64,000 nucleotides of DNA from an uncultured Desulfurococcaceae archaeon (GCA_964480805.1 CAYZRH010000004.1:1749-65748), one strand, 5' to 3'. Positions 14,601-30,185 are shown, counted from the first letter of the stretch. A program made the numbers and translations. The notes: generated from the sequence alone by a model not told the origin.

Positions 14601-15658
14601 ACTATGCTGGAGTACTAGAAGCAGATATTATAAGCACTAATATATCACTACATGCTAAACTAGATGCGTACTATGTATCACTTGTAGACCTACTACTAGC
14701 TATTAATGAGAGCATATTCAGCAGACTTGATGAACTAGAAGGCAACCTAGTGGCATTTATTGAATACGAGACTTCAAGACTAGAGGGAGACCTATACGAT
14801 GTTGAAGACAACATAATCTATGAATTAACAATAGAGATTGATAATGCTCGTGAAGAACTATCATCACTAATAACCACTGAGAGTATGGCTATACAGTCAC
14901 TCATTACACTAAAAGCTGATGAGCTAAAGGCGTTTGTGAATGAGAGTAGATTAGAGATTCTAGCATCAATCAATGATGCTAAATTAACAATCTTAACTAG
15001 ACTAGACCATCTAGAAATAGTACTTAACGACACCCGTGCAACGATAATGACAGAGCTATTTAGTATAGAGACAACGCTAGACAACATAATAGACTTAATC
15101 AACACAGCAGCTGATGAACTAGGTGTTAAAGTTGACAGCTTATCAGAATTTGTTGGAGACGTTAACGAGTCAATATATGGACTAGTACTAACTGTTGGTG
15201 ACAACATCAAGGTAACAATTACTGGTAAAGCGGATGATATAATGAACCTTGTAAGTAGCTCAAGCGATGAACTAAAGAGTCTTATTGGCGAGAAAGCAAG
15301 CGATCTAGAATCACTTGTTGGAGATAAGTTTAGTGACTTATCAGATCTAGTAACTAGCAAGACTGATGAACTAAGTTCAGCCCTAGACACTGCTAAGAGC
15401 GATCTAGAGACATTAATAACAGATAAGTTTAGTGAGCTATCAGGTAAACTAGATGATACAAAGACTGCTTTAAGTAGTGATATATCAAGTGCACAGACAA
15501 GTCTAAGCAGTAGATTAGATGAGAAATCAGACGACGTATCACAGAAAGTAGACTCTGTAGACAGTAAGTTAGTAACCTACAGCCTTGTAACACTAATACT
15601 ACTAGTCGTTGTCATTGGACTAGTAGGATATAGTGTAATAGCATTTAGAAGAGGCTAA
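8639..15658 (+). CDS. giant (2339 aa) N-glycosylated surface protein: signal peptide, beta-rich head, ~1200-aa coiled-coil stalk, C-terminal TM anchor (tetrabrachion-like architecture)
   Basis: N-terminal signal-like MVVNRPASILLLILLLFNSFAIITTPLTARA. Dozens of N-x-S/T sequons. From about nt 11940 the sequence is a continuous heptad-like helical repeat (LEWKLDKIINDT..., RLDELETDLTLL...). C-terminal hydrophobic anchor LVTYSLVTLILLVVVIGLVGYSVIAF followed by RRG. Confidence 0.85.
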   Translation: MVVNRPASILLLILLLFNSFAIITTPLTARASAVNVSQVTEYHDIWVCAQEGCMPNAPGDKNLTAPNGDLYDITLGNTSELIVYFNLSVLSEAGIDLGSVYLAISPGLPKIAFLTSRTNPKTISLLVNGFYDSDPYINTTFVEYVSITRVSADLSMAKIKFKTLKGIFLETADSSPGPNDNPPTYVEDLYGVGLSFVVEDITPDRAESDNVFTMYEVPNVDAQLQSTDISITVTNDVIKKYHDTIIVVDYSVLFDKVNDLLNSYGLVDIIGTVNLTRSDIYTEVYMYNLYNTSERHLLVYGNDLGWTTDGGPYFSTVSAYTDSDEKILYVDADDLLDFAPTEISAEEYLTSHYGFYVFINFSYAVLNCTFSLNITFDLEADSATASGTKKILKVKASEEVTEIPDLWADPAELNPNDNLTIVLHHLPEDADITKVVLNRSGYVIEIPKDELTITYLGDGDFEVNLTIPDGEWGGADTEVKVIVDTTRYVNEHPDCYVEYIAVYPYIITYIITNETAFAEENATGYNATFIFGNKTAPGDYVMVKGFGFITPTSEGEELTSYVKAFVDSNRILVLHAMDKGNGSIIVLLKMNYTTGGVVPPGTYTLNISVDPVHNYATAGLEVAIEDKLKKMFIDPVPFYNGTLYKIYHIKLTDPFQLYYPLIGSEPGDHFDWAHIPSWFNHSFEFISFPDTSVDIDLRNKDYSIDFSWLTLSLTHGYGLWHTGNALVDQYLPYGDYTWLVNGEEPKAIDGRTIFYVRIQIDIDYDSPITDRVGCRGQNITICAIGLPPNEDVNVTIQYTVYANGTNYYSIYPGLTREYWEGEFNVTITSDENGTGCVEFNTTDYYPTDYVTNATHEVAIKKGWVGTNVKEYLFFEFNATITGVSNETDSFELKTHDTQLDFSMIFHVHILYNITVIEHVTVTVPRENATITVPEVLLPGDTVTVQVFIHKKSVYDAYVDPASLLEISDVTIDGYMFWEAWVRLVDPLTNTPVLTVYGNSTPSSHPEWLIAEDVDGDGELEVWWAIPVDTSPLGLVGVDKTYRVDVRIRWRFANYSLTPEINVSDELCHIYMNYTSFIPFNVSETYWYIGGDHQLVTILGILEWKLDKIINDTVWLKAKVNDTYNYLTINITQFLEYINNTVVEIRGDVAIIKADVAIIKANVSTLIDLAREAHVKLDLILGNLTVIEYKIENVNETIHLRLDEINATLEEILWWLQDIKYELEAYYAELEWKLDEINETLHVMNDTLLWKLDAINESITLRIIMAKEQLEELIKAVNETIFRRLDRLEGSIEAYIDDKVVYIEGLLHEVVHNITTNVTIEIHNARDEVITKLEDILTNLTIQLTTLKNDLNASITYYGDTLIAKIESTNTSLHLVIRECCMNLTNLIKAVNTTILDRLDDMESSLEAYIDMKAYELEICITDAANDVKENITIEIGEAKDDILKAIEDMLTRITSRLDMLEEHINASIEIAKDETILFINDSKNAIIARIDSCCTELKDLIITKASDILARLDVLEANVVANITAAKNDLDILIRTVNSTLYAKIEDEADRIVGILNNVYTSLSDKLDNVNASISALITYYGDMLELKLDYINTTLHGVNATLYFKIESATASILNAINNMHTDLLNKLYELGNNLTVLINDRSAEIKVLVENKASEIVSNLSLKIDDASNNIISELKAFVSAKISEVIGNITDLKENVSITIKAYADMFEAKLDSINSTIHVKLDNYYTALRDLLIAINTSIFNRLDELETDLTLLVNEKTAYLEGVIYNVRDEILTNLTIEIHDAREDIVSELTSYATQILNRIDLAESNVVANITSYGDRIVADIASANATIHLKIEECCTELKDLITTKASDILTRIAELQDNVTITIKTYADMFEAKIDSVNSTIHLKLDNYYSALMSFLTSMNASLFSRLDELETDLTLLINEKTAYLEGVIYNVRDEILTNVTIELTNAKEEILAALEASTLAILARLDELESNVIANITYYAGVLEADIISTNISLHAKLDAYYVSLVDLLLAINESIFSRLDELEGNLVAFIEYETSRLEGDLYDVEDNIIYELTIEIDNAREELSSLITTESMAIQSLITLKADELKAFVNESRLEILASINDAKLTILTRLDHLEIVLNDTRATIMTELFSIETTLDNIIDLINTAADELGVKVDSLSEFVGDVNESIYGLVLTVGDNIKVTITGKADDIMNLVSSSSDELKSLIGEKASDLESLVGDKFSDLSDLVTSKTDELSSALDTAKSDLETLITDKFSELSGKLDDTKTALSSDISSAQTSLSSRLDEKSDDVSQKVDSVDSKLVTYSLVTLILLVVVIGLVGYSVIAFRRG
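13741..14754 (+). repeat. two tandem ~507-nt (169-codon) units inside the stalk-coding region; older degenerate copies extend upstream to ~12300
   Basis: TIKAYADMFEAKLDSINSTIHVKLDNYY...EKTAYLEGVIYNVRDEILTNLTIE (from 13741) matches TIKTYADMFEAKIDSVNSTIHLKLDNYY...EKTAYLEGVIYNVRDEILTNVTIE (from ~14248). An identical 47-nt run tatcttgaaggagtaatatataatgtaagagacgagatactaactaa occurs at 13928 and 14435. Confidence 0.85.
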
Positions 15659-15792: not shown

Positions 15793-16197
15793 TTGTTGAA
15801 GGCTGTATCAAGCTATCTATCGCTAGTGGTAGCACTACTGGTTATAACAATGGTTTCAACAGCATCTATTATAGCTATTAATAGTATGGAGCGTACTATT
15901 CAGAAGTCTATAAAGGATGTTGGTAGAGAGGCTATTGTATATAGGAGGGTATGTCTTAAGAATAGTTCTATAGTAGTTATAAAGTTGTTAGAAAATACTA
16001 TAATTCAAGACATAGTTGTTGTTGATCAAGTTAATAACAGTTTATCTAGACTAAGTAGTAGAGACCTATCTATAAATACTTCATGTAGATTCCTTGATAG
16101 AGAACTACAGTGTAGTGTAGGGGATCTAGTGGTTATTATAGTGCCTAGAGACTACAGAGTTTTACTAATAACTAATAGAGGTGTCTATATTGTCTAG
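15793..16197 (+). CDS. small N-terminally anchored secreted/membrane protein (possible pilin-like class III signal)
   Basis: 134-aa ORF, TTG start after GGGAGG. N-terminus MLKAVSSYLSLVVALLVITMVSTASIIAI (short charged n-region, K-A, then a ~22-aa hydrophobic helix). Overlaps the next gene by 17 nt. Confidence 0.55.
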   Translation: MLKAVSSYLSLVVALLVITMVSTASIIAINSMERTIQKSIKDVGREAIVYRRVCLKNSSIVVIKLLENTIIQDIVVVDQVNNSLSRLSSRDLSINTSCRFLDRELQCSVGDLVVIIVPRDYRVLLITNRGVYIV

Positions 16198-18307
16198 AGC
16201 ATTAACAAGTTATCCACTAGCAATTACAGCTATAGTATCTATCATAGCTGTACTAACGGTCTCTCTAACAATACTAGATACAATGTTTAGAGTATCTAGA
16301 GAAGTAGTTAGTATTAAGGGTAACTCCTTTATAGAAGACATAGACTACACGATATATAAGGAGGATCTCTACATACTATCTAGCTCTAATAAAATATACT
16401 ATGAGATAATACTCTATCCAAACAATACAATAGAGACTATAGCTCTAAACACAACACCCTACTCTAAAGGCTTTCTCCACGGACCGGTTAAGATACCATG
16501 TAACCCTAGTGCATCTATAGCTGTAGTTGATGGAGAGAGTTTGGAAGTCGTTGATGTAATAGAGACTATGGATATAGCAAGTAACCTAGTATATAGTAGC
16601 AATAGTGTGAAACCACCAAGTCTATACATGAATATTTTAGAAAATAATCTAGAAACAATAGACCAGTTTGTTAAAGGTTCATACGTGTTTCAAGAGTATA
16701 GACCATTTAAAGACAATGTATTTACAACTTATTTAGAACCTGGAACTAGCTATCTAATAGACTTTAACGGTGTCATCTATAGAGATGGATATGTAAAACC
16801 TATACCCTTACTAAATGATACAATAGAGATTAACTATGAAATGTTTAGTGAGAATGTTAGTAGAATACTTAGTAATGGTTCAAGGGTTTATGGTAGATAC
16901 AGTGTTCTATACAACATATCTCTAAACACACGATTAGTTGACAACAAGACTATAGGCTTTGAAAGCTTTAGTGATACAGGGTGGGCTATACCAGGTACAT
17001 TATATAGAGTTGTTGAGGAACACACTATATACAATGGTTTAGTACAACACTATGGATTATACTCCCTACTATATGATCTAAACCATACAATAGACTATAT
17101 ACTCATACACGGTTTTAAAACAGGGAAGCTATATTGTGTACCCTTAAACGTGACATATAGTATAGAGTTACTTAATCAAACAAGTGTTATAGAAGTAGAG
17201 AACTGGACTATAGAGATAAACTCTTCACTAATACCCACCTTCCCTCTATACAGGGAGAGATTGAACAAGTCTATAGATGCTATACTATCCACTGGTAATG
17301 AAGCAATCCTGAAACTAGAGGTCACATACGACATACCCATACCTTATGTAAGTGATATATTTTACATAAACATTTCAGCACACATAAATGATCCTTTAAA
17401 AGAAGGCTCTGTAGAGATGATATATGGTGGGCTAGTAAGGCTTAAACTAGATAATAGTAGTCTAATAGATTATAGATTATACTCTAATAGTAGTATCATA
17501 GTGAATTCTACAATAGAATACCCTAGTCCTAACTATACACTATCTATAATAATAAGTGGTTCTAGTAGACAAGACCTCCTATATAATGGTTCTATATTAT
17601 TAGATGTTCTAGGAATGGGTGATATTAATAGAGTAGAGTATATGTCTCCTGATATAATTCTAGAACCTGAGCCATTTCTAGTTATAAACAGTATTATAAG
17701 TGTTAATGGATATAGTATAGTATATGGCAACATATCAGATAATACTATATGGATATACTCTGAAGACTCTAGAGTGTATATAAACTATACAATACCACCA
17801 GCTATACGTCTTAACAATACATACATCTCTGTAGATGATGTAGCCTATATTCTTAGTGATATAGCTAGTAACATTAGTACTGTAGTTGTTGGAGACAAGG
17901 TATTCCACGGATCTAGCGTCTATGTACAGAACATGTATTGTTTAGAAGAAACTGTTTTTAGAGAACCAGTTCTAGTGGTTGAAACAAGTGTTCCTATAGA
18001 AGTGGTTGTAGAACATATAGATGGCTCTATAGTTGAAAGTGTTTTCTATAGAAGTGGTTCTCTAGAGTTAGAGGATAAACTAGTTTCTAGAATAAGTGTT
18101 TATTTAGTAAATAATGTTTCAATAATCTACCGTAGTTGTAGAGTAGGGAAGTTCTTCATATACTATAATGGTGGGTTAGAGGTAGGTGTTTTAGATAATA
18201 GTATAGTGTATGTTATGGGTTATCCAGTAGCTAGGATAGTTTTTAAAGACATAGAGGTTTATACCATACTTTCACCCATCTCTCTCCTACTTAAAAACCC
18301 TCCATGA
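16181..18307 (+). CDS. large N-terminally anchored, sequon-rich extracellular protein
   Basis: 708-aa ORF. N-terminus MSILSRALTSYPLAITAIVSIIAVLTVSLTIL shares the (K/R)-A-x-(S/T)-S-Y-x-L motif with the upstream 134-aa protein. Many N-x-S/T sites. No family recognised. Confidence 0.6.
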   Translation: MSILSRALTSYPLAITAIVSIIAVLTVSLTILDTMFRVSREVVSIKGNSFIEDIDYTIYKEDLYILSSSNKIYYEIILYPNNTIETIALNTTPYSKGFLHGPVKIPCNPSASIAVVDGESLEVVDVIETMDIASNLVYSSNSVKPPSLYMNILENNLETIDQFVKGSYVFQEYRPFKDNVFTTYLEPGTSYLIDFNGVIYRDGYVKPIPLLNDTIEINYEMFSENVSRILSNGSRVYGRYSVLYNISLNTRLVDNKTIGFESFSDTGWAIPGTLYRVVEEHTIYNGLVQHYGLYSLLYDLNHTIDYILIHGFKTGKLYCVPLNVTYSIELLNQTSVIEVENWTIEINSSLIPTFPLYRERLNKSIDAILSTGNEAILKLEVTYDIPIPYVSDIFYINISAHINDPLKEGSVEMIYGGLVRLKLDNSSLIDYRLYSNSSIIVNSTIEYPSPNYTLSIIISGSSRQDLLYNGSILLDVLGMGDINRVEYMSPDIILEPEPFLVINSIISVNGYSIVYGNISDNTIWIYSEDSRVYINYTIPPAIRLNNTYISVDDVAYILSDIASNISTVVVGDKVFHGSSVYVQNMYCLEETVFREPVLVVETSVPIEVVVEHIDGSIVESVFYRSGSLELEDKLVSRISVYLVNNVSIIYRSCRVGKFFIYYNGGLEVGVLDNSIVYVMGYPVARIVFKDIEVYTILSPISLLLKNPP

Positions 18308-18322
18308 TAACGGGTGTAGTCT

Positions 18323-18589
18323 GTGACTGATGTAGTAGAGTTTATTCAACAAATAATACTTGATGTAACGATAATAGCGTGGGTAATGTTCTTCCTAACA
18401 TGGGTTATAGGGTGGGCTCTAAAAGGCTCACCAATACCATTCCTTAGGGTAAAGCGTGCAGGACAGAGGTTTATAGAGGATGCTGTATGGGCTGCATTCT
18501 GGCTTGCTATGGGTAGTACAGTGTTTGCTTTAATAGCCTATATTGCTACACAATTCCAGCAACCATTCCCTGAACCACCAACGATCTAG
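18323..18589 (+). CDS. 88-aa two-helix hairpin membrane protein; candidate VirB2/CedA1-type (conjugative-type) pilin
   Basis: Helix 1 IILDVTIIAWVMFFLTWVIGWAL, basic loop KGSPIPFLRVKRAGQRF, helix 2 AVWAAFWLAMGSTVFALIAYIATQF. Sits directly upstream of the polytopic protein. Size and topology match VirB2-like pilins. Confidence 0.55.
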   Translation: MTDVVEFIQQIILDVTIIAWVMFFLTWVIGWALKGSPIPFLRVKRAGQRFIEDAVWAAFWLAMGSTVFALIAYIATQFQQPFPEPPTI

Positions 18590-18616
18590 GGCTAGCCGGA
18601 GGGCTGTGGTGATGTT

Positions 18617-20026
18617 ATGGAGTATGAGTTCCTACTTACTGCTTTCTACTTGTCAGTACTCTCATACTATCTAGGTACACTATTCTATATGATACCGCTA
18701 CCATTCTACTCTATTAAGAAGTGGGCTCCAACACTAATGGTTGACGGCGTTTTTTCTGCTACACTAGTATTTACATACACAATCATACTAGCTTTAATAG
18801 ACTATATTGGAGGGGTACTGGGTAGTAACTGGACATCATTCTATCTATGGATTGGATTTAAAACAGGTATTGTAGCTACACTATTGACAATACTACGTAT
18901 TATAGGTATGACGCTCTCTATGAGTGGTCTACAGTTTCTAGCAAACAGTATAATATCATCACTTATATCAATACTAACATATGTAATACTATCACTACTT
19001 ATCATAACAGTAGTTGCAATGATTATAACAAGCTATGGAGCAAGACTACTAGCACTAGGTATACTACTGCATGCAGTACCATTTCGTCTTACAAGAGCTA
19101 GTGGAGCAATGATGATCTCTATAGTCATTGTATTCTCTATAGGTCTACCGTTAATGCCTGCTTTTGTAGAATATGTTTCAGCACCACTTATAGTGCCCGG
19201 GCTAGTTGTTACAGACTATGGGTTAGCATATGTTGTTGTAAACATAACTGATACAGTAGGTAACAGTATACCATACACCTTGTTTGAAGCATATCGTCTA
19301 GATAACAATAGATTACTGGCTAGATACATAGGTAGTAGAGAGGGATACATAGATACGTGTGATCCAGATAAGGGGTTGCCAAGTAGTAGAAGCTATGGAG
19401 TAGTTGTAGAAGTTGGTGGAGCTAGACTAGTTGATACAGTTAATCCAGTAGAGGACTATAAACAGTTAAACAACACAGTCTATAGACTAGATCTTAGATA
19501 CAATAAGCTATTATCAATAGGTGTTACTAGGTTCATATACTTAAACAACTCTATACTAAAATCACTGACAATTAGCCAAAACCACTACACACTAGAACTA
19601 GATGTAGACCAGGAGACAGCTATCTATATAGTAGTACAGACAAGTGATACGGTAACAGTGTATATTGATGGCTATGGAAGGAGTCCTGATAGAACAGACT
19701 ACTATACATGGTATGGTGTAGAACTATACTCTCATACATACACACTAGATACTGGAAGCCATGTAGTTGACTTATACATAGTCTATGGTGATACAGAGAC
19801 ACCGGAAATAGATGAAGTCTACTACCTACGTGATGTAGCAAATATTACACTAACAAGGCCTATAACACTGATAAACCCAATAGCATACCTTATATTCAAC
19901 CTCCTTATAGCACCACTAGCCTATATAGCAATACTATTCTCAACATCATACGCACTTGCTAGACTACTTGGCGGTACACGCCCTAGTATCCTATACGCAG
20001 TCACTATGGGGAGGAGGATTGGGTAA
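18617..20026 (+). CDS. polytopic membrane protein with large extracellular domain; candidate CedA/VirB6-like channel component
   Basis: 469 aa. About 6 hydrophobic helices in the first 190 aa. A ~220-aa soluble, sequon-bearing domain follows (NITDTVGN..., NNTVYRL...). Final TM LIFNLLIAPLAYIAILFSTSYAL. Confidence 0.5.
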   Translation: MEYEFLLTAFYLSVLSYYLGTLFYMIPLPFYSIKKWAPTLMVDGVFSATLVFTYTIILALIDYIGGVLGSNWTSFYLWIGFKTGIVATLLTILRIIGMTLSMSGLQFLANSIISSLISILTYVILSLLIITVVAMIITSYGARLLALGILLHAVPFRLTRASGAMMISIVIVFSIGLPLMPAFVEYVSAPLIVPGLVVTDYGLAYVVVNITDTVGNSIPYTLFEAYRLDNNRLLARYIGSREGYIDTCDPDKGLPSSRSYGVVVEVGGARLVDTVNPVEDYKQLNNTVYRLDLRYNKLLSIGVTRFIYLNNSILKSLTISQNHYTLELDVDQETAIYIVVQTSDTVTVYIDGYGRSPDRTDYYTWYGVELYSHTYTLDTGSHVVDLYIVYGDTETPEIDEVYYLRDVANITLTRPITLINPIAYLIFNLLIAPLAYIAILFSTSYALARLLGGTRPSILYAVTMGRRIG

Positions 20027-20193
20027 TGGATAGAGTTGAGAAGATAATATGGGTTATGATAGCTATAATAGCAGTTGTATCAATAGTTTCATCACCTAAA
20101 CCACTAACTATAATCCTAAACACGTTGTTCATAACCATCATAGTCACACTAAGGCTTGTCTTAAATAGAGTTGGTGAGAGATATGAAGTTTAA
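20026..20193 (+). CDS. unlisted 55-aa two-TM hairpin protein (CedA2/VirB3-position)
   Basis: Manual translation: MDRVEKIIWVMIAIIAVVSIVSSPKPLTIILNTLFITIIVTLRLVLNRVGERYEV. The ATG overlaps the upstream stop (TAATG). Its stop at 20191-20193 overlaps the ATPase ATG at 20183 by 11 nt. Below the ORF-track size cutoff. Confidence 0.55.
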   Translation: MDRVEKIIWVMIAIIAVVSIVSSPKPLTIILNTLFITIIVTLRLVLNRVGERYEV

Positions 20194-21853
20194 GAACATA
20201 CTAAAAGCTTTTCTAGGAGACAGTCTAGACTATGAGATAGCTGATGGAGTTCTCATACTATCCTATAGAGGTAGGTTTCACGGTATAAAATACTTGGTTG
20301 CAGATGAGGTAGACTACGGGTTTAAAGACCTTGATCAAAGGACTGTGTATAGACTAGTTGAGTCGTATACAAGCATATATTCTAGACTACCAGTTGGTAG
20401 TGAGCTTAAGATTGTTAAACTAAGGTTTAATAAGAAGAAGTTTACCCGCCGTATAGAGAATGAGATGGTTAATATAAAAGCTGTATTAGAGACTACTAAA
20501 GAACCACATCTTATTAAGAAGTTTGAGAGAAGACTAGGTATTCTAGAGAGACTATATCATAAGATTATTAGTTTAGAAGATATTGAGAGAATACAGCTTA
20601 TAGTTAAGATACATGGAGAGTCTAGTAGTAGAGAGAACTTGTTAGAGAATCTTGAAACACTAGCTGATATGGTTAAAAACTTATTCCATATAACATACGG
20701 GGTTGAGCTAAGGTGTGCTAGAAGGAATGAGGTTAGAAGGATTATAGAGTATGAGCTTGGTCTTACAAGTAGAGAACTAGGTATAGGTAGAGCAATAGTT
20801 GTTGAAGGTAAGAGGATAGCAACAATACAGCCAATACCATATACTAAAAAGCCTAGACTTGAGGAGATGGATGGTGTATACCTTGGATACGATATAGAGA
20901 CTGGATGGCCTGTTGTAATAGATAGAGATGCACTGTATAAACACTTGCTTATCGTAGGCCCTACTGGTAGAGGTAAGACTGTCACACTAGCTAGTATTAT
21001 TGAAAACCTTATAGCACTTGGAGGTGTTGATGTTATTGGTATAGATTTTAAAGGGGATCTTGTAGAGCTTCTTCAAAATGATCTACTATGTATAGTTGGT
21101 CCAGAGAGTCTTCCATTAAATATTCTTGTAAGACCAGACTATATACCACGTGTTGACTGGGTTTTAGTTGTTAATGAGCTTCTTAACAAGGTTCTTGGTG
21201 TTGATTCTAGGAGGGTTTCTTCAATACTGAACGTTGTTGTTGATGAGGATAGGGTTTTAGAGTATATTGATCCTGAGAAGCTTTTACTAGATAAAGACTT
21301 GTCTATACTAGCTAATGTTATAGAGATTGTTAGTAAGAAGCCTGATTATAATAGGTTTTTAAAGCTTATTGATAGCGGTAACACAGTCTTCAACCTACAT
21401 GGTTATGGGGTTGCTTACCAAAACCTCTATGGCGGACTAGTATTGTCTATAGTATCGTATCTTGTATCTACTAGTAAGTTGTTTAATAGAGTAGTAGTTG
21501 TTGATGAAGCATGGAGGGTTATGGGGATTAAGACACTTTATACACTAGTTAAGGAGGGTAGGAGCCGCCGTGTAGGCGTTGTTCTTGCTACACAGAATAT
21601 TGAGGATGTTCCTCCAGAAGTCCTTGATAATATTCATACAGTTATAGCCTTTGGATCATATAGTGATAGCTATATTGGTAAACTTAGAGAACTACTAGGG
21701 CTTAGAGATACGTATGTTGAAAAGCTTAAGAGAATGGGTGTTGGAGAAGCAGTCATGATTACTTCAATGGATAGCCATCCAGTATATGTGAGAATAGAGC
21801 CTCCTACAAAGCTTGAGGATAAGATTAAACAAGGTGTTGTACGTATAGTATAG
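20183..21853 (+). CDS. VirB4/TrbE/CedB-like secretion ATPase
   Basis: ORF 20171..21853; first ATG at 20183 (MKFKNILKAF). Walker A LIVGPTGRGKTV. Walker B RVVVVDEAWRVMG (the DEAW form characteristic of VirB4/TrbE, versus DEAH in HerA). GVVLATQNIEDVP. N-terminal ~250-aa non-ATPase domain as in VirB4. Confidence 0.7.
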   Translation: MKFKNILKAFLGDSLDYEIADGVLILSYRGRFHGIKYLVADEVDYGFKDLDQRTVYRLVESYTSIYSRLPVGSELKIVKLRFNKKKFTRRIENEMVNIKAVLETTKEPHLIKKFERRLGILERLYHKIISLEDIERIQLIVKIHGESSSRENLLENLETLADMVKNLFHITYGVELRCARRNEVRRIIEYELGLTSRELGIGRAIVVEGKRIATIQPIPYTKKPRLEEMDGVYLGYDIETGWPVVIDRDALYKHLLIVGPTGRGKTVTLASIIENLIALGGVDVIGIDFKGDLVELLQNDLLCIVGPESLPLNILVRPDYIPRVDWVLVVNELLNKVLGVDSRRVSSILNVVVDEDRVLEYIDPEKLLLDKDLSILANVIEIVSKKPDYNRFLKLIDSGNTVFNLHGYGVAYQNLYGGLVLSIVSYLVSTSKLFNRVVVVDEAWRVMGIKTLYTLVKEGRSRRVGVVLATQNIEDVPPEVLDNIHTVIAFGSYSDSYIGKLRELLGLRDTYVEKLKRMGVGEAVMITSMDSHPVYVRIEPPTKLEDKIKQGVVRIV

Positions 21854-23022: not shown

Positions 23023-24153
23023 ATGGGAGCTAGGAAGAAGTCAGCGCCAAGACACGGATCGCTTGGTGTAAGGCCTAGAAAGAGGGCTTCACGTATAGTT
23101 CCACGTGTAAGAAGCTGGCCTAAAGTAGAGTGTGAACAGCCTATACTACTCGGCTTCCTAGCATACAAAGCTGGTATGACACATGCTATAATAGTTGATG
23201 ACAACCCGCACTCCTATACTAGTGGTAAAGAGATTATGGTCCCAGTTACTGTACTTGAAGCACCTCCACTACTTGTTCTTGGTGTACGTGGTTATACATA
23301 CCATGTATCAACTGGTTTAAGAAGTGTTGGTGAGGTTTGGAGAGATCCTTTGGAGACACTGGAGAAGCTTGCTGAAGAGTTTTCTAATAACCCGTTTGTA
23401 GGTAGGAGTGTGGAGGCTATTGTTAGACAGTATTATAGGGGGTTGAGGAAGAAGCTTCCATGTATTGTTAAGGAGGATAAGAGTCTAAAGTATGGGTACA
23501 AGTTTTTAGAGGGTGATTGGGAGTCTAAACTAGATAGGCTATTGTCTCGTAGACTAGTTGATGTAAGAGCTATTGTGTCAACAATACCTGTTGTAACAGG
23601 TGTTGGTAAGAAGAAGCCTGAGATACTTGAGATAAAGATTGGTGGTGGGGAACTAGGTGATAGAATAGAGTATGCTAGGAAGATACTTGGTTCAGCAGTA
23701 TATGTATCCGATACATTCAAGGAAGGACAGTTTATTGATATAATAGGCGTTACAAAAGGTAAGGGGTTTCAGGGAGTTATTAAACGGTTTGGCGTAAAAG
23801 AGCTACCTAGATGGCATAAGCATAGGAAAGGTAGTAGGAGAATAGGTGCTAGAAGCCCAGGGTTTGGAACAATAAGCCCTGTACCACAAGCTGGACAGAT
23901 GGGCTTCCACCGTAGAACAGAGTATAATAAACGTATTATAAAGATCGGTTTTAACGGCTTAGAAGCTACTCCATCAGGTGGTTTTCTAGGATACGGTATT
24001 GTAAAGACACACTACATACTAGTACAGGGATCGGTTATTGGCCCACGTAAGAGAACTCTAGTACTAAGACACCCTATTAGACCCCCAGAGTGGAAGCCTG
24101 ATTCTCCACCACAGATAATCTATTTGAGTCTAACTAGTAAACAAGGTGTCTAG
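23023..24153 (+). CDS. rpl3: 50S ribosomal protein L3
   Basis: [33 protein letters not shown] is the typical archaeal L3 N-terminus. First gene of the conserved cluster. Confidence 0.95.
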
Positions 24154-24167
24154 AGGGGAGTAGCTAT

Positions 24168-24983
24168 ATGGTTTGGGAGATAGTTATACCATTAAAGATT
24201 GAGAAGGCTAAAACAGTAGTCTATAACCTAGAAGCAAAAGCTGTAAAAGAGACTGTGCTACCAGAGGTATTTTCAATACCAGTAAGGAAGGATGTTATAA
24301 GAAGAGCATTCCACTCAGCATTTACAGCAAGACTACAGCCTAAGGGTAGAGACCCACTAGCAGGTAAGAGGACAACAGCACGTAGCTGGGGTGTTGGTAG
24401 AGGAATAGCACGTGTACCACGCATACCTACTGGTAGAGTAGCGTTCATATCATTTGCTCGTGGAGGACACCGTGCATTCCCTCCAACAACATTGAAGAAG
24501 ATTCATGAAGAGATTAATAGGAAGGAGATGGCATATGCAGTAGCATCAGCACTTGCAGCAACAGCTAATATAGAGTTTGTGAGGAAGCGTGGACACTGTT
24601 TTAAAGTTGATAAACTACCCGTAGTTTTAGCTAAAGAGGTTGAAGAAGGTATTAGTAAGGCTAGAGAAGCACGTGATTATCTAGAGAGGATTGGTTTATG
24701 GAGTGATATAGAGCGTGCTCATAGGAGGATAAGGGTTAGAGCTGGTAGGGGTAAGATGCGTGGTAGAAGATATGTTGAACCAAAGAGTATACTGTTTGTA
24801 TTGTCTAGTACAAGTTCTCCACTAGCACTTGCTGTTAGAAACATGCCTGGCGTAGATGTTGTTACTCCAGAGAATCTCAGTATACTACATCTGGCACCTG
24901 GAGGTGTGCCTGGTAGATTAACTGTTTTTATAGAAGACACACTAGATGTTATAGCTAGTAAGTATAGGGTGATAACACTATGA
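24168..24983 (+). CDS. rpl4: 50S ribosomal protein L4 (L1e)
   Basis: 271 aa. [20 protein letters not shown] and RGGHRAFPP motifs. Position between L3 and L23. Confidence 0.9.
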
Positions 24984-25243
24984 GCGATCCATACAAGATC
25001 ATTATAAGGCCTGTTCATACAGAGAAAGCTATCAATCTTATAGAGAGACAGAATACTCTAGTACTCATAGTTAGCCAGAGGGCTAGTAAGCACGATATAA
25101 AACAGGCTGTAGAAACAGTATTTAATGTAAAGGTTGAGAAGATACGTACACTAATAACACCACGTGGTGAGAAGAAAGCATATATCAAGCTTAAACCAGA
25201 GTATCGTGCATCAGATATAGCTTCACAACTAGGTATACTCTAG
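24980..25243 (+). CDS. rpl23: 50S ribosomal protein L23
   Basis: 87 aa. [15 protein letters not shown]...[12 protein letters not shown]. Has a 4-nt overlap with L4. Confidence 0.9.
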
Positions 25244-25255
25244 AGGTGGTTGTCT

Positions 25256-25978
25256 ATGGGTAAGAGAATACTTGTGCAAAGAGCTGGACGTGGAACACCA
25301 GCATTCCGTAACCGTGGGCACTTACGTGTAGGTCCAGCCCACTACCCACCAATAGCAGGGATTAAGGAGACACTACGTGGTAGAGTAGTAGACCTACTAC
25401 ACGATCCAGGTAGATGGGTTCCACTAGCAAGGATCGTCTTGGAGAATGGTGAGGAATTCCTAACACCAGCTGTAGAGGGAATGTATGTTGGACAAGTAAT
25501 AGCTATTGGGCCGCAAGCAGGTATCAGGAATGGAAACATACTACCAGTAGGAGCTATACCAGAAGGTACACAAATAGCAAATATTGAGGTAAGGCCAGGT
25601 GATGGAGGGAAACTAGTACGTTCAAGCGGTGCATACGCTGTCATAGTAGGGCGTAGTGGTAATAAGACAATAATACAGTTGCCAAGCGGTAAGGTTAAGG
25701 AAGTACCGAATAATGCAAGAGCAATAATAGGTGTAGTAGCTGGTGGAGGTAGACCGGAGAAACCATTATTGAAAGCAGGAGCATCCTATCATAAATGGAA
25801 GGTTAAAGCACATAAATGGCCTCGTGTACGTGGAGTAGCAATGAATGCTGTAAGCCATCCACATGGCGGCGGCAGCCACCAGAGTGTATCATTTCCATCA
25901 ACAGTATCACGTACAGCACCGCCTGGACAGAAAGTTGGGCACATAGCTGCTCGTAGAACTGGTAGGAGGAAAGGCTAG
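25256..25978 (+). CDS. rpl2: 50S ribosomal protein L2
   Basis: [19 protein letters not shown]...[12 protein letters not shown] at 25256 preferred over TTG 25250 (GAGGTGG upstream). Confidence 0.95.
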
Positions 25979-26248
25979 TTATAGTATATAGTATTGTAAT
26001 GCTCTCTCTTTTAACTAGAATTGATTAATAAGGGATCTATTGGAAGATTTTTAAACAAACATTTTAAATACTTGATGGAGGACGCAGTATTGCTAAATAA
26101 ACTAATTAAACAATGTTCATTATATAATTAAACAGTATTAAACATTATCCTAATAACACCAATACAAATTTAAGTAAAGACTTAAAAATAACCATAGTAT
26201 ATGAATATACATGAAAGATAAAGGTGTGTGTTAAAGGGGTGTAGATAT

Positions 26249-26389
26249 ATGCCTAAGTGTCCAAAGTGTGGAGCTGAGGTAGAGAAGCCAATTAAGACTT
26301 GGGTTCTAGCTCCTAAGGGAAGGAAGGGTGTTGTAATCGGTCTATTCAAGTGTCCAAACGGACACTACTTCAGAGCTAAGGCTGAGTAA
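26249..26389 (+). CDS. unlisted 46-aa Cren7-like small basic protein with CxxC...CxxxH putative zinc site
   Basis: Manual translation: [46 protein letters not shown]. The [17 protein letters not shown]...YFRAK core matches, from memory, the [29 protein letters not shown] core of crenarchaeal chromatin protein Cren7. GGGGTG precedes the ATG. Confidence 0.6.
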
Positions 26390-26404
26390 AGAGTCTAATA
26401 GTAT

Positions 26405-26785
26405 CTAGTCTAAACCCATATGTTTTTTAACAACCTTTAAACTCTCTCTCAAATAATCTATTCTAGAAACTGGATAGTGAATTATAATAGTACCTGCTCT
26501 CCACTTTATCTCTAATAATACTTCATCTCTACCTCTAGTTTTCATCAATCTTACATCCTTTATACTGTTATAATCTAAATCTACGCACTCGCCAACATCC
26601 TCTCTACTAACTCTAACTCTATAAACAACTCTGTCAACAAATGGACTATACCTCTTCTTCCTAAAACCAGTAGAATAAGGTATAGTGCATATCCTCAAAC
26701 CACTACACGAAACCTCTAGTATACAGTATTCAATACCGTGTCTAACAACATAGCCTCCATAAACAACTATTCTACTACACTCCAA
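26405..26785 (-). CDS. hypothetical protein (126 aa), no recognisable family
   Basis: Only long ORF in this interval. Divergent from the MoxR-like gene with a 96-nt AT-rich spacer. Cys-rich N-terminal part (MECSRIVVYGG...CILEVSCSGLRIC). Confidence 0.4.
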   Translation of the reverse strand: MECSRIVVYGGYVVRHGIEYCILEVSCSGLRICTIPYSTGFRKKRYSPFVDRVVYRVRVSREDVGECVDLDYNSIKDVRLMKTRGRDEVLLEIKWRAGTIIIHYPVSRIDYLRESLKVVKKHMGLD

Positions 26786-26881
26786 TTACTCTACACCAGT
26801 AGTAGGCTTAGGATACTATAGTTAATTAAGGGAATAGTTTATTCTTGATTATATAGTATATGTACTTAGGAGAGAAACAAT

Positions 26882-27811
26882 ATGATTGATAAGGATGATC
26901 CGGTGGTTAAGAAGGTATACGAGATCTATGGACTAGCTATTGAAGAGTCTAAACCAGTTAGGAATCCAGAGCTTATGATAAGGTTTTTAAGAGAAAAATA
27001 TAGGCTACTAGTAAAACCACGTATAGTATACTTAACAATAGCTGCATTCCTAAACAATAGACCAGTATTATTCGAGGGACCGCCAGGTACTGGTAAAACA
27101 GAGATTGGTGAAGCAATACTAACTCTATGGGCTGGCAAGACAGCATTCATATTACCATGTAGTGAAAACTATGATGAATACCGTGTTATAGGAGACTTCC
27201 ACCCCGTAATGGCTATAAGTAAGGGTTTTAATGAGGAAAGCTTTATACCAAGGCCATTGCTTGCAGCATTGATTTTGGATGCTGGCATACTTATTGACGA
27301 GGTACGTAGGAGTAGTGAGGAGTTCCAAAACCTTCTTCTAGATATTATTGATAAGAGACGTATTATTGTTCCAGAACTTAAGAAGGTTTATAGACAGAAG
27401 GGTATTGGTTTCCAAGTCATACTAACTAGTAACCCAGAGGATATAGCACAGAATGAACTTAGTGATGCTTTTCTAAGACGTGTTGTTAGGATAAAGTTTA
27501 GTTATCCAAGTATAGAAGAGGAGTTGGAGATTCTGAAGCTAAGGCTTAGAGACAACCTAGACTATATACCAAAACCACTAGTTAAGAAAATGCTTAATGT
27601 AGTCAATGTTTTAAGAACTAAGACAGTATATAAGCCAGGTCCATCAGACACTGTTTCATGGGGTATACTTGCTGTTAAAATAGCTATGTCTCGTGGTGAT
27701 AATAGAGCATCTATAGATGACCTAGTTAGTTCTGGTGAAGCAGTCCTTATTAAGAATGTTGAGGATGAAGAAGTTGTTAGAGAAATACTCTATAGAGAGT
27801 TTAAGAAGTAG
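26882..27811 (+). CDS. MoxR-like AAA+ ATPase
   Basis: 309 aa. Walker A LFEGPPGTGKTEIGEAI, Walker B GILIDEVRRSSEEFQNLLLDII, then LTSNPED...DAFLRRV. This is the single-AAA MoxR/RavA-type layout. Confidence 0.8.
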   Translation: MIDKDDPVVKKVYEIYGLAIEESKPVRNPELMIRFLREKYRLLVKPRIVYLTIAAFLNNRPVLFEGPPGTGKTEIGEAILTLWAGKTAFILPCSENYDEYRVIGDFHPVMAISKGFNEESFIPRPLLAALILDAGILIDEVRRSSEEFQNLLLDIIDKRRIIVPELKKVYRQKGIGFQVILTSNPEDIAQNELSDAFLRRVVRIKFSYPSIEEELEILKLRLRDNLDYIPKPLVKKMLNVVNVLRTKTVYKPGPSDTVSWGILAVKIAMSRGDNRASIDDLVSSGEAVLIKNVEDEEVVREILYREFKK

Positions 27812-29702
27812 GTCAGAGCATATAGTTTTCTCACTAGTAAATGCTCTCTATAAACTAGGTTATAGAATACCTATTTCACAGACTATAGACTTTATTAAAA
27901 TCCTTGAAACATACATGGTTTTGAAACATTATGCTGAACCATCATATCCGGAGATTATTGAATTAGCTGAATCAGTATTTACAACAATAAATTGGAGTCC
28001 AAAACTTAAACAAGAACTACTAGATCTTTTGGAGAGAAAACGTGTGAGGCTGGAAAGTGGTTTAAGCCAGAAAATAGTATCTAGGATTAGGTTTGGTAGA
28101 GAAGTAAATGTTAGAGAGATACTCTCTGGTAGACTGTGTAAGAGTGATATTGAGACATATATTGTTATGAGGAAACTAGGTATTATACACCGCATTAGAT
28201 CTGGTAAGTATAGAGCTGTTAAATATAATGAATATAGAAGAACTATTAAGAAACATAGAGACTATAGTATTAGTGCAAGTGACATTATTAAATACCTTGA
28301 TGAAATACCTATGGGCTATTGGAGTATGCTTCTATCTCAAGATGTTATAGATAAAGCTAGTTATAAAACGCTCTTTAAACTAGCTGAAGAACTGGTTAAA
28401 ACGGATAATGAGAGGCTTAAGAAACTGGTTCTTAACAGACTGTCACATGACATAAGCTCTACTACTAAACTTAGTTCTAGAGAGAGGAGAGTTCTTCAAA
28501 ACTTGTTAAGAACAACTAATTATAGTGATTTAAGGCTTTCTCTTAAAGCATATAGAGATGTTAGTAGGGATCTTATAGATAGGTATGGTTTAAGGGATCT
28601 TATTAAAGAAGTTAAGTCGTTAAGTATTAGTGAGAGAAGGAGAGTATTAAGTAAACTTGTAAAGTATTTAAATAAGAATGAGTTAGAGCAAGTTGTTAAT
28701 GAAGTAGATATACTATCTTTTACTAGAATACCTAGATTAGATAAGACTTTATCAACAATATATAAATTAGCGAATGCTCTTACCAGCTTTATTGATTATA
28801 AACTGACACAGAATCCTTCATTTCTAGACTATAGTCTCTATTATTTAAAGGATATTGATGCTAACACTATTCCTCTAAAATACAGGCCTTTATATGAAAG
28901 CCTTATCCATAGAGATCTTAGGACTATGGTCAATAAGCTATCTATAGTTGAACTACACAGCCTTGTAGAGTATGTTATTGGTAGAACTGTTGAGTTAAGG
29001 AATCTAGGTTATAGTGATGAAGTACTAGCTAATGCTCTAACACTTAGTATGAGAGTTCTTAGAAACATAGTTGGTAGACATGGTGGTTTCCTTGTTGAGA
29101 AGAGGAAGACTATGGTTCACCGTGGACGTGTTGAGGTTAAAGATAGTCTATACCATTTTGTTAGACATAACTATAGCCTTGTCTATACTTATAGAGTTAG
29201 AAAACCATCTATTGTAGCATTACTTGATGTTAGTGGCTCTATGAGAAACTACTCTCTATGGGCTATAACAACACTAGCTTCTATAATATATCGTGTTAGA
29301 CTAGCTATAGTGTTTTCTGATAAGTGTGAAGTTATAAGGTTTACAAAGTATCCTATAAGACTACTACATAGGTTTCTTAAAACAATATTGATGAGTAGGT
29401 TTAATGGCTATACTGATATAGACTCTGCTCTAACAGAAGCCTTGAGGTATATTAGAAGTGGTGATGTAGTTGTACTTATAAGCGATCTTAAACAGACTGT
29501 TAAGGGTGACCCCGTACAGAAGATTAAGAGGGTTGTTGATAGAGGTACTAGGTTTATAGCTATAACACCTAAGCACTATAGTGTAGATCTCGCTAATGCT
29601 ATTAGAGAACTTAGTGGAGAAGTTATAGTATCTAGTTCACCACTAGAAATACCTTATATACTTAGGAAAAAGCTAAACTTAAAAATAGGTATACGGATTT
29701 GA
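27735..29702 (+). CDS. von Willebrand factor A (VWA/MIDAS) domain protein with long helical N-terminal region
   Basis: C-terminal VWA: IVALLDVSGSMRNY (DxSxS), GYTDIDSAL, VVVLISDLKQ. Start is uncertain (GTG 27735, ATG 27756 or 27765). Every option overlaps the MoxR stop at 27811, suggesting coupling. Confidence 0.75.
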   Translation: MKQSLLRMLRMKKLLEKYSIESLRSRSEHIVFSLVNALYKLGYRIPISQTIDFIKILETYMVLKHYAEPSYPEIIELAESVFTTINWSPKLKQELLDLLERKRVRLESGLSQKIVSRIRFGREVNVREILSGRLCKSDIETYIVMRKLGIIHRIRSGKYRAVKYNEYRRTIKKHRDYSISASDIIKYLDEIPMGYWSMLLSQDVIDKASYKTLFKLAEELVKTDNERLKKLVLNRLSHDISSTTKLSSRERRVLQNLLRTTNYSDLRLSLKAYRDVSRDLIDRYGLRDLIKEVKSLSISERRRVLSKLVKYLNKNELEQVVNEVDILSFTRIPRLDKTLSTIYKLANALTSFIDYKLTQNPSFLDYSLYYLKDIDANTIPLKYRPLYESLIHRDLRTMVNKLSIVELHSLVEYVIGRTVELRNLGYSDEVLANALTLSMRVLRNIVGRHGGFLVEKRKTMVHRGRVEVKDSLYHFVRHNYSLVYTYRVRKPSIVALLDVSGSMRNYSLWAITTLASIIYRVRLAIVFSDKCEVIRFTKYPIRLLHRFLKTILMSRFNGYTDIDSALTEALRYIRSGDVVVLISDLKQTVKGDPVQKIKRVVDRGTRFIAITPKHYSVDLANAIRELSGEVIVSSSPLEIPYILRKKLNLKIGIRI

Positions 29703-29750
29703 GAATAAAGGCGTAGATGTAGAGGATAGAGTGATAGGTGTTAGTAGGCT

Positions 29751-30185
29751 ATGGCTTCAATACCAATAGAGATACCGCCTGAATGGAGGAAGTTTAGGTA
29801 TAGAGGTAAGTCTCTAGAAGAACTACTTGAAATGCCTATGGATGAGCTAATAAACCTACTACCAGCACGTCAGAGGAGGAGTCTTAAGAGAGGACTTACT
29901 GAAGCACAGGTTAAGCTACTAGCTAAGATTAGGAAAGCTAGACAGCTTATGGCACAGGGTAAGAGAGCTTTTATAAAAACACATGTACGTGACATGATAA
30001 TACTTCCAGAAATGGTTGGATTAACAATAGCTGTATATAATGGTAAAGAGTTTATACCAGTACGTATAACACCAGAAATGATTGGGCACTACCTTGGAGA
30101 ATTTAGTCCAACGTGTAAACGTGTACAACATGGTGAGCCAGGGCTTAAGGCTACACGTAGTAGTATGTTTGTATCACTAAAGTAG
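29751..30185 (+). CDS. rps19: 30S ribosomal protein S19
   Basis: 144 aa. [19 protein letters not shown]...[29 protein letters not shown]. Confidence 0.95.

Follow-up and report, generated by a model that had tools for sequence, protein, structure and literature searches.

A 64,000-nt contig of crenarchaeal (Thermoproteota) Desulfurococcaceae type, with a GC content of 0.37, was analysed here (CAYZRH010000004.1, 1749-65748). This whole stretch is called the window, and coordinates refer to it unless a locus is named. Genes were called from an open reading frame (ORF) list combined with profile scans of the window (Pfam, NCBIfam). Between the genes of the ribosomal proteins uL2 and uS19 (also L2 and S19 below), positions 25979-29750 carry a set of genes including a MoxR-type AAA+ ATPase and an adaptor with a VWA domain, which bears a metal-ion-dependent adhesion site (MIDAS). 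The features of the region are the following.

23023-24153, plus strand: L3 (ORF list and profile scan)
24168-24983, plus strand: L4 (ORF list and profile scan)
24980-25243, plus strand: L23 (ORF list and profile scan)
25250-25978, plus strand: uL2, final gene of the L3-L4-L23-L2 block (NCBIfam PRK09612, 363 bits; Pfam Ribosomal_L2_C)
25979-26248, no strand: AT-rich spacer, 270 nt (GC 0.244)
26249-26389, plus strand: cren7, 46 aa (Pfam Cren7, 56.6 bits)
26405-26785, minus strand: ORF of a small basic protein, 126 aa (no family match)
26786-26881, no strand: divergent intergenic region with TATA-like elements, a putative promoter region judging from its sequence
26882-27811, plus strand: MoxR-type AAA+ ATPase, 309 aa (Pfam AAA_5, 63.1 bits)
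27735-29702, plus strand: VWA adaptor (Pfam VWA_CoxE, 54.7 bits)
29673-29687, plus strand: BRE/TATA-like block CTAAACTTAAAAATA, candidate uS19 promoter (conserved DNA, within the last VWA codons)
29751-30185, plus strand: uS19 (NCBIfam PRK04038, 234 bits)

Downstream of uS19, the ORF list continues with L22, S3, L29, Rpp29, S17, L14, L24, S4e and L5. The ATPase and VWA reading frames overlap by 47-77 nt, depending on the start codon chosen. An earlier note, made from the sequence alone, had already placed the end of L2 at 25978 and the start of S19 at 29751, and had reported between them the AT-rich spacer of 270 nt, a Cren7-like mini-gene, overlapping MoxR-like and VWA genes with the motifs GPPGTGKT, ILIDEVRR and DVSGS, and a VWA gene ending 48 nt ahead of S19 (its stop codon occupies 29700-29702). 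The ORF and profile scans agree with this layout at every point.

The same note regarded the segment as an insertion of this genome. It is instead conserved across a family-to-order-level clade, and is very probably an ancient, vertically inherited cassette of the Desulfurococcaceae/Pyrodictiaceae group (Thermoproteota), neither recent nor mobile, which encodes a remodelling chaperone of the MoxR/VWA type. A set of 163 loci, obtained by scanning genomes with L2 and metagenomes with S19, was sorted by tblastn (individual loci are designated by L and a number). L2 and S19 are contiguous, with no cassette in range, in 74 loci of other Thermoproteota, Korarchaeota, Thermococci and others. The cassette itself is met in five gene orders: L2-(small gene)-AAA-VWA-S19-L22-S3 (17 loci), AAA-VWA-S19 without L2 (2 loci), cassette at most 1 kb from S19 (1 locus), cassette 3-4 kb upstream of S19 on the same strand (6 loci), and, in Pyrodictiaceae, L2 and S19 followed by the VWA and ATPase genes in convergent orientation (6 loci). 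The distance from cassette to S19 is 0-4 kb in all 32 loci that show both. Look-ups anchored on the ATPase itself, with 8-10 kb of flank per side, are free of the sampling bias that an L2 or S19 anchor introduces, and all six informative ones adjoin S19. Five of them have the order L2-cassette-S19 (Staphylothermus marinus, Desulfurococcus mucosus, the isolate genome CP072660 and two metagenome-assembled genomes, MAGs), and the sixth, Pyrolobus fumarii, has the convergent order. Among the informative loci retrieved, no orthologue was seen at an unrelated place, every one of them lying 0-4 kb from uS19; the sequences of four uninformative loci (L002, L006, L012 and L166) stop inside or just past the cassette.

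The five gene-order classes correspond to clades of the ATPase neighbour-joining tree, which argues that each rearrangement took place about once and that the family was inherited vertically. ATPase identity follows L2 identity (for example 84 versus 91%, or 65 versus 79%). In class D and in L092, S19 has neither L2 nor L22 nearby, yet the cassette is retained. S19 is thus found to hold on to the cassette more faithfully than to L2 or L22 in the loci sampled, and the cassette is the most persistent S19 neighbour in the Desulfurococcaceae/Pyrodictiaceae clade sampled. The ATPase family occurs in heterotrophs as well as in the autotroph Pyrolobus, its presence being independent of metabolism. 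Under generic designations, these genes have been publicly available in genome records since 2009-2011 at the latest, and the open-access literature, whose restricted scope makes this weak evidence, yielded no paper that notes either the family or its linkage to uS19.

The ATPase is clearly of the AAA_5 type (PF07728, with a cut-off of 22 bits), the AAA_3 profile of MoxR proper reaching just 18.9 bits, under its own cut-off; its homologues are named 'MoxR family ATPase' in the databases. The protein has the degree of conservation of a housekeeping gene product, and indeed of a ribosomal protein. Across 26 orthologues, the Walker A residues G66-T73, Walker B D139, sensor-1 N184 and the arginine-finger residues R199/R200 are invariant or, for some, nearly so, E140 of Walker B is kept in at least 90%, and a family-specific block, P92-P108, is likewise invariant or nearly invariant. 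The family is tight (61-85% identity) and restricted to one hyperthermophilic lineage. A collection of 5.8 billion proteins gave 402 matches, the best 120 of which are all at least 63% identical, and among 1.84 billion representatives of 50%-identity clusters the family forms one single cluster, P0131. Beyond this cluster, only one protein passes an E-value of 1e-30, namely P0132, which is 38% identical. P0132 is an AAA_5 ATPase of 281 aa (L164, L165) that scores 158 bits with the NCBIfam model MadB_ATPase, below the model cut-off, and is found on short contigs in a different context, after three small unannotated ORFs. The nearest outgroups of the ATPase are fused AAA_5-VWA proteins of 580-711 aa. 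The gene context was retrieved for three outgroup proteins (P0132, P0148 and P0162), and none of them has ribosomal genes beside it. Wherever the sequence of an orthologous locus continues beyond the ATPase gene, an overlapping VWA gene follows.

The adaptor is a protein of about 645-655 aa, starting probably at 27756 or 27765. Its VWA domain, with the motifs DVSGS, GYT and SDLKQT, is of the VWA_CoxE type (PF05762, cut-off 26.4 bits), the profile covering residues 470-613 alone; VWA_CoxE is also the best VWA profile in 23 of 24 adaptor homologues. The MIDAS residues D498, S500, G501, S502, T560 and D584 are invariant in these 24 homologues, all of which have an isoelectric point (pI) of about 10, similar to that of the ribosomal proteins of the window. 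Outside the MIDAS, the adaptor diverges fast, with 20-40% identity where L2 has 67-91%. The 470 N-terminal residues match no Pfam family, either in the window protein or in the 24 homologues. AlphaFold2 (AF2) models were built for the full-length adaptor and for the N-terminal domain alone, with mean confidences (predicted local distance difference test, pLDDT) of 75.6 and 85.7, respectively, both on shallow alignments of 5-6 sequences. In the predicted structure, an all-α solenoid of about 450 residues precedes the VWA domain, and a winged-helix-like element (a helix and a β-hairpin) may be recognized around residues 136-161. No significant fold match was found in the PDB for the N-terminal domain, the best one (E 0.017, template modelling score, TM, 0.17) being a generic α-solenoid. 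The C-terminal domain of the model fits many solved VWA domains (probability 1.0, root-mean-square deviation 3.5-5 Å over about 180-200 residues). A low-confidence segment of the model inside this domain, 518-544, is where a 'finger' insertion of the NorD/CbbO kind, entering the ATPase pore, could sit. A profile search for further adaptor homologues, limited by its word prefilter, returned the same six proteins and weak matches to the VWA part only.

The minus-strand gene, formerly taken for an orphan, turns out to have homologues at the same position in relatives. Its product, a basic protein with a pI of 9.3, is transcribed divergently from the ATPase and matches no Pfam, NCBIfam or PADLOC family. 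Homologues of the same position and orientation are present in L001, L081 (Staphylothermus), L084-L086 and L088, which represent classes A and B, and a small divergent gene also lies at this position in L167-L169. A second group of small proteins is found in Pyrodictiaceae and L092, and hhalign relates it to the first (probability 90%, E 1.6e-6, 110 columns). The small gene, conserved in two homologous groups, is thus a third component of the cassette, previously unnoticed, and the unit comprises three genes that probably share a divergent promoter region. The small protein encoded beside RtcB in other Thermoproteota was considered as a further homologue and rejected (hhalign probability below 2%).

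Transcription signals suggest that the cassette could be semi-autonomous, the L2 block terminating in the spacer, the cassette having a divergent promoter of its own, and S19 being served by a promoter located in the 3' end of the VWA gene. A run of five T residues (26048-26052) lies in the AT-rich spacer after L2, and this spacer probably holds both the terminator of the L2 block and the promoter of cren7, which is itself followed by a run of six T residues (26423-26428). TATA-like elements are found 20-33 nt upstream of the ATG of the ATPase gene, and the interval 26786-26881 is probably the bidirectional promoter of the cassette. In the 150 nt upstream of S19, compared over 11 loci, the most conserved DNA is CTAAACTTAAAAATA; the TATA-like block before uS19 is also written CTTAAAAATA. 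Adaptors carry the peptide tail LNLKI, encoded by CTAAACTTAAAAATA, only where S19 is the very next gene; Pyrodictiaceae lack it, as do the aligned loci of classes C and D, and L087 (class C) has a TTTATAA element in intergenic DNA instead. The CTAAACTTAAAAATA block, which lies near the end of the VWA coding sequence, is thus probably the B recognition element (BRE)/TATA promoter from which S19 is expressed. A Shine-Dalgarno-like GGTG motif precedes S19 by 11-14 nt. The interval between VWA and S19 has no run of five or more T residues, so read-through is also possible. Co-transcription with S19, as proposed at first, is possible but would not be needed, given a probable promoter of S19 itself, from which S19 could be expressed independently, and a divergent promoter region for the cassette.

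The L2-S19 junction had also been called universally conserved, which is overstated for this clade, where the cluster shows breaks of many kinds and also houses unrelated UbiA and EamA genes. Among the 163 classified loci, 16 have L2 without S19 in at least 4 kb (up to 10 kb) downstream and 9 have S19 alone. The S10-type ribosomal cluster looks indeed unusually fragmented across the clade. Many relatives have an L3-L4-L23-L2 block that stops after L2, S19 being absent over 10 kb; L2 ends lacking S19, or displaced L2/L23 genes, are seen in L013, L015-L021 and L031 (Ignicoccus pacificus, Zestosphaera and Desulfurococcaceae MAGs) and in L106, L108, L110, L115 and L136. Other relatives carry L2 and L23 some 3.5 kb upstream of S19 and on the opposite strand. 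In other Thermoproteota (L027, L066, L087, L108 and L134), 1-2.8 kb of DNA separates S19 from L22, the inserted genes coding for a UbiA-family prenyltransferase, an EamA transporter, or an RtcB RNA ligase together with a protein of 131-148 aa. Insertion into the cluster is therefore in itself no evidence of function. Upstream of the cassette, genes of IleRS type and PCNA recur in the non-Desulfurococcaceae branch (L012, Pyrolobus, L009, L056 and L087; coordinates 11737-15749 in L012, 4236-7421 in L083 and 4753-5493 in L087), which suggests an older neighbourhood with IleRS/PCNA, then the cassette, then S19.

The cren7 gene is found upstream of the cassette in class A only. Its real start is the ATG at 26249 rather than the GTG at 26228, and its product matches PF11520 (cut-off 25 bits) over profile positions 14-52 of 58. 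This is a Cren7 of zinc-knuckle type (CxxC...CxxxH), here CPKC...CPNGH, which is 93-98% identical among the class-A relatives L001, L002 and L084-L086; a gene labelled Pfam Cren7 is present at the same position in L169, and the 64-kb window has no second Cren7 copy. Cren7 orthologues with cysteines, of the zinc-chelating type, have already been described in Ignicoccus and other crenarchaea (PMC5906684). As in these, the Cys and His residues of the window protein are placed at the β1/β2 and β4/β5 turns; it differs from them in having His rather than Cys as the fourth ligand and in its short length, and its position between L2 and the cassette is a trait of one sub-lineage, class A.

Further upstream in the window, two large acidic ORFs (8639-15658, 2339 aa, pI 4.3; 16181-18307, 708 aa, pI 4.6) have hydrophobic N-termini and probably encode secreted or surface proteins. 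A putative Ced DNA-import gene set (18323-21853) follows, directly upstream of a SPOUT methyltransferase gene and of L3; it consists of two CedA1-labelled genes, a tiny ORF and a HerA/VirB4-like ATPase gene at 20171-21853. The CedA1 label comes from precomputed matches to Pfam PF27251 on syntenic genes, the window ORFs giving no match in the local Pfam. Synteny of this set is kept in Staphylothermus and several MAGs (L081, L083, L167-L169), and in Pyrolobus the set lies directly upstream of L2-S19.

A mechanism can be proposed by analogy with the NorQ/NorD and CbbQ/CbbO pairs. The ATPase would assemble into a hexameric ring, on which a single VWA adaptor would dock. ATP hydrolysis would then be relayed through the VWA domain, whose MIDAS metal would grip an acidic residue of the client complex and thereby remodel it, the variable N-terminal solenoid picking the client. 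MoxR/VWA pairs are widespread, and clients are known for a handful of them only. A particle of ribosomal or pre-ribosomal nature, perhaps the small subunit in the vicinity of uS19, is the leading single candidate for a client here, because all lineages with the cassette have kept it at 0-4 kb from the uS19 gene; this identification is put forward tentatively, and is more doubtful than not. Proximity to uS19 hints at a ribosome-related job, the ribosomal function being a hypothesis drawn from gene order alone.

One explanation, to which something approaching an even chance is given, is that the cassette is a historical passenger, a MoxR/VWA chaperone with a non-ribosomal client that landed by uS19 in the ancestor of the clade. 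Its client could be found in the maturation of a metalloenzyme or of a membrane complex, as for CoxD/E, NorQ/D or RavA/ViaA, and its position would have been kept because rearrangements were few and local, or because expression there is conveniently constitutive. All occurrences are indeed in one clade, gene-order classes match clades, and the linkage loosens with divergence. Unrelated genes also interrupt the ribosomal cluster in related archaea, and the operon is fragmented clade-wide. The cassette has putative autonomous promoter signals, its VWA domain is of the CoxE type, and the characterised prokaryotic MoxR/VWA pairs all serve non-ribosomal clients (PMC3893208, PMC9976466). Against such a passenger, no gene of a plausible client (carbon monoxide dehydrogenase, nitric-oxide reductase, RuBisCO, gas vesicle or Nuo) was found in the 8-10 kb flanks of any context examined, the family is present regardless of metabolism, and in this sample the cassette is a steadier neighbour of S19 than L2 or L22 is. 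An old neutral insertion that was simply inherited is a strong rival to a ribosomal role.

The ribosomal reading, in its original form, holds that the cassette is a midasin-like remodeller for ribosome assembly or quality control, co-transcribed with the ribosomal genes, whose MIDAS strips a factor from a ribosomal particle or remodels this particle. It is considered possible, although rather unlikely. In its favour, the uS19 linkage survives rearrangements and outlasts L2 and L22 adjacency in some lineages, the ATPase has the conservation of a housekeeping gene, and the adaptor and the small partner are both basic. The lack of T-runs between VWA and S19 and the Shine-Dalgarno-like motif of S19, of the kind seen in operon-internal genes, also fit, and the AAA_5 clade contains midasin as well. 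This reading stands on synteny, however, and several observations oppose it: the scores per midasin module are low compared with those of ordinary prokaryotic AAA_5 proteins, as detailed below; the nearest ATPase outgroups lie outside ribosomal contexts; S19 and the cassette probably have separate promoters; and the adaptor domain evolves fast, its N-terminal fold giving no ribosome-specific match. A more specific version, in which a split, single-module analogue of Rea1/midasin in the Desulfurococcales, made of a MoxR-type hexamer, a basic α-solenoid MIDAS adaptor and a small basic partner, remodels a small-subunit or pre-ribosomal particle near uS19, appears unlikely.

More general considerations also weigh against a ribosomal role. 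The support comes from sequence, predicted structure and gene order, and within a single order-level clade descent by itself can be enough to preserve gene order. The five configurations stand for only some five independent lineages, and most loci were retrieved with an L2 or S19 anchor, which biases the sample towards linkage. With divergence the linkage loosens, from adjacency through 1 kb and 4 kb to an inverted arrangement. Fragmentation of the ribosomal cluster is general in the clade, and other Thermoproteota carry unrelated UbiA and EamA genes in it. An N-terminal domain with 20-40% identity is not what would be predicted for docking on a very conserved ribosomal surface, and other archaea do without this ATPase family. 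Beyond the ribosomal or translation-related reading and that of an unrelated housekeeping client, the remaining weight goes to other or mixed scenarios.

Chance integration at the L2|S19 junction of a mobile element, a defence island or a recent horizontal transfer is highly improbable and effectively refuted by the conserved position: the segment has a lower GC content than the flanking ribosomal genes (0.34 versus 0.40-0.43), a 16-nt direct repeat (25977-25992 and 29621-29636, 15/16 matching) lies near its two ends, and MoxR-VWA modules occur in conflict systems, but the GC content at third codon positions of the cassette genes (0.23-0.28) is that of L2 and S19, orthologues occupy the same place across genera with a tree congruent with gene order, ATPase divergence parallels L2 divergence, and the segment contains no integrase or transposase and has no significant PADLOC match. 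The repeat was rejected as a terminal one, being at the chance level for AT-rich DNA of this length, where the chance expectation for a 16-nt repeat is our own estimate. The earlier note had likewise seen neither integrase nor terminal repeats. A defence system was also rejected, with no meaningful PADLOC match, as was a non-coding RNA, the spacer and the segment having no Rfam match even at E-values up to 1.

We know of no energy-driven remodeller of the MoxR/VWA type described for archaeal ribosome assembly. If the ribosomal reading were true, this would be the first AAA+/MIDAS machine for ribosome biogenesis or quality control known in prokaryotes, and the cassette provides a concrete, testable candidate for such an archaeal machine, with cultured hosts in Staphylothermus, Desulfurococcus and Pyrolobus. 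If the link is merely historical, it brings a warning against inferring function from an insertion into a ribosomal operon where operons are heavily rearranged.

Comparison with known AAA+/VWA systems bears first on midasin. Midasin (Rea1) is the eukaryotic remodeller of pre-60S particles, in which six fused AAA modules, a long linker and a MIDAS domain form one chain of about 5000 aa. The cassette resembles it in combining an ATPase of the AAA_5 clade with a MIDAS domain and in the genomic hint of a ribosome link; it differs in having one AAA module, of 309 aa, with the MIDAS on a separate chain. Midasins are the top whole-protein matches after the ATPase family itself, a high rank that results from the summed scores of their six modules. 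The best single midasin module reaches at most 46 bits (119 proteins of at least 1,300 aa), versus 83-126 bits for single-module prokaryotic AAA_5 proteins. A special kinship with midasin was thus rejected on per-module scores, and the 'midasin-like logic' attributed at first to this locus finds no specific support, the closest relatives being ordinary prokaryotic AAA_5 proteins. To our knowledge, no archaeal Ytm1 or Rsa4, the ligands of midasin, is known.

Ro60/TROVE proteins also have an α-helical repeat domain followed by a VWA/MIDAS domain, and are the top Foldseek match of the full-length adaptor model (E 5e-4). Homology was rejected, since TM scores are 0.15-0.24 and a search with the N-terminal domain by itself no longer gives the match; the 24 adaptor homologues give no TROVE Pfam signal at E-values up to 1. 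The analogy is an architectural one only. The CoxD/CoxE system, of the 'APE2220' subfamily of MoxR, is similar in its two-gene organization, with an ATPase and a VWA protein, and the adaptor VWA domain fits VWA_CoxE best. The window adaptor differs by the addition of an N-terminal solenoid of 470 aa, and the 8-10 kb flanks of the seven annotated contexts have no genes for CO dehydrogenase or Mo-hydroxylases.

The NorQ/NorD and CbbQ/CbbO pairs have the same general plan, namely a separate AAA_5 ATPase of about 300 aa and an adjacent partner of 600-750 aa with a variable N-terminal part and a C-terminal VWA/MIDAS domain. NorQ and CbbQ, with 31 and 25 bits, are also the best single-domain sequence matches of the ATPase in the PDB, MoxR proper reaching 19 bits. 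In the NorQ/NorD study, a hexameric ring binds one adaptor, the MIDAS binds the client, and specificity comes from the variable N-terminal domain (PMC9976466). The similarity of the cassette to these pairs is distant, and no nitric-oxide reductase or RuBisCO genes lie near it. It stands apart from them by an extra small basic partner, by its restriction to one archaeal clade and by its link to uS19; this conserved uS19 tie of a MoxR/VWA family, together with its small partner, is what is new here.

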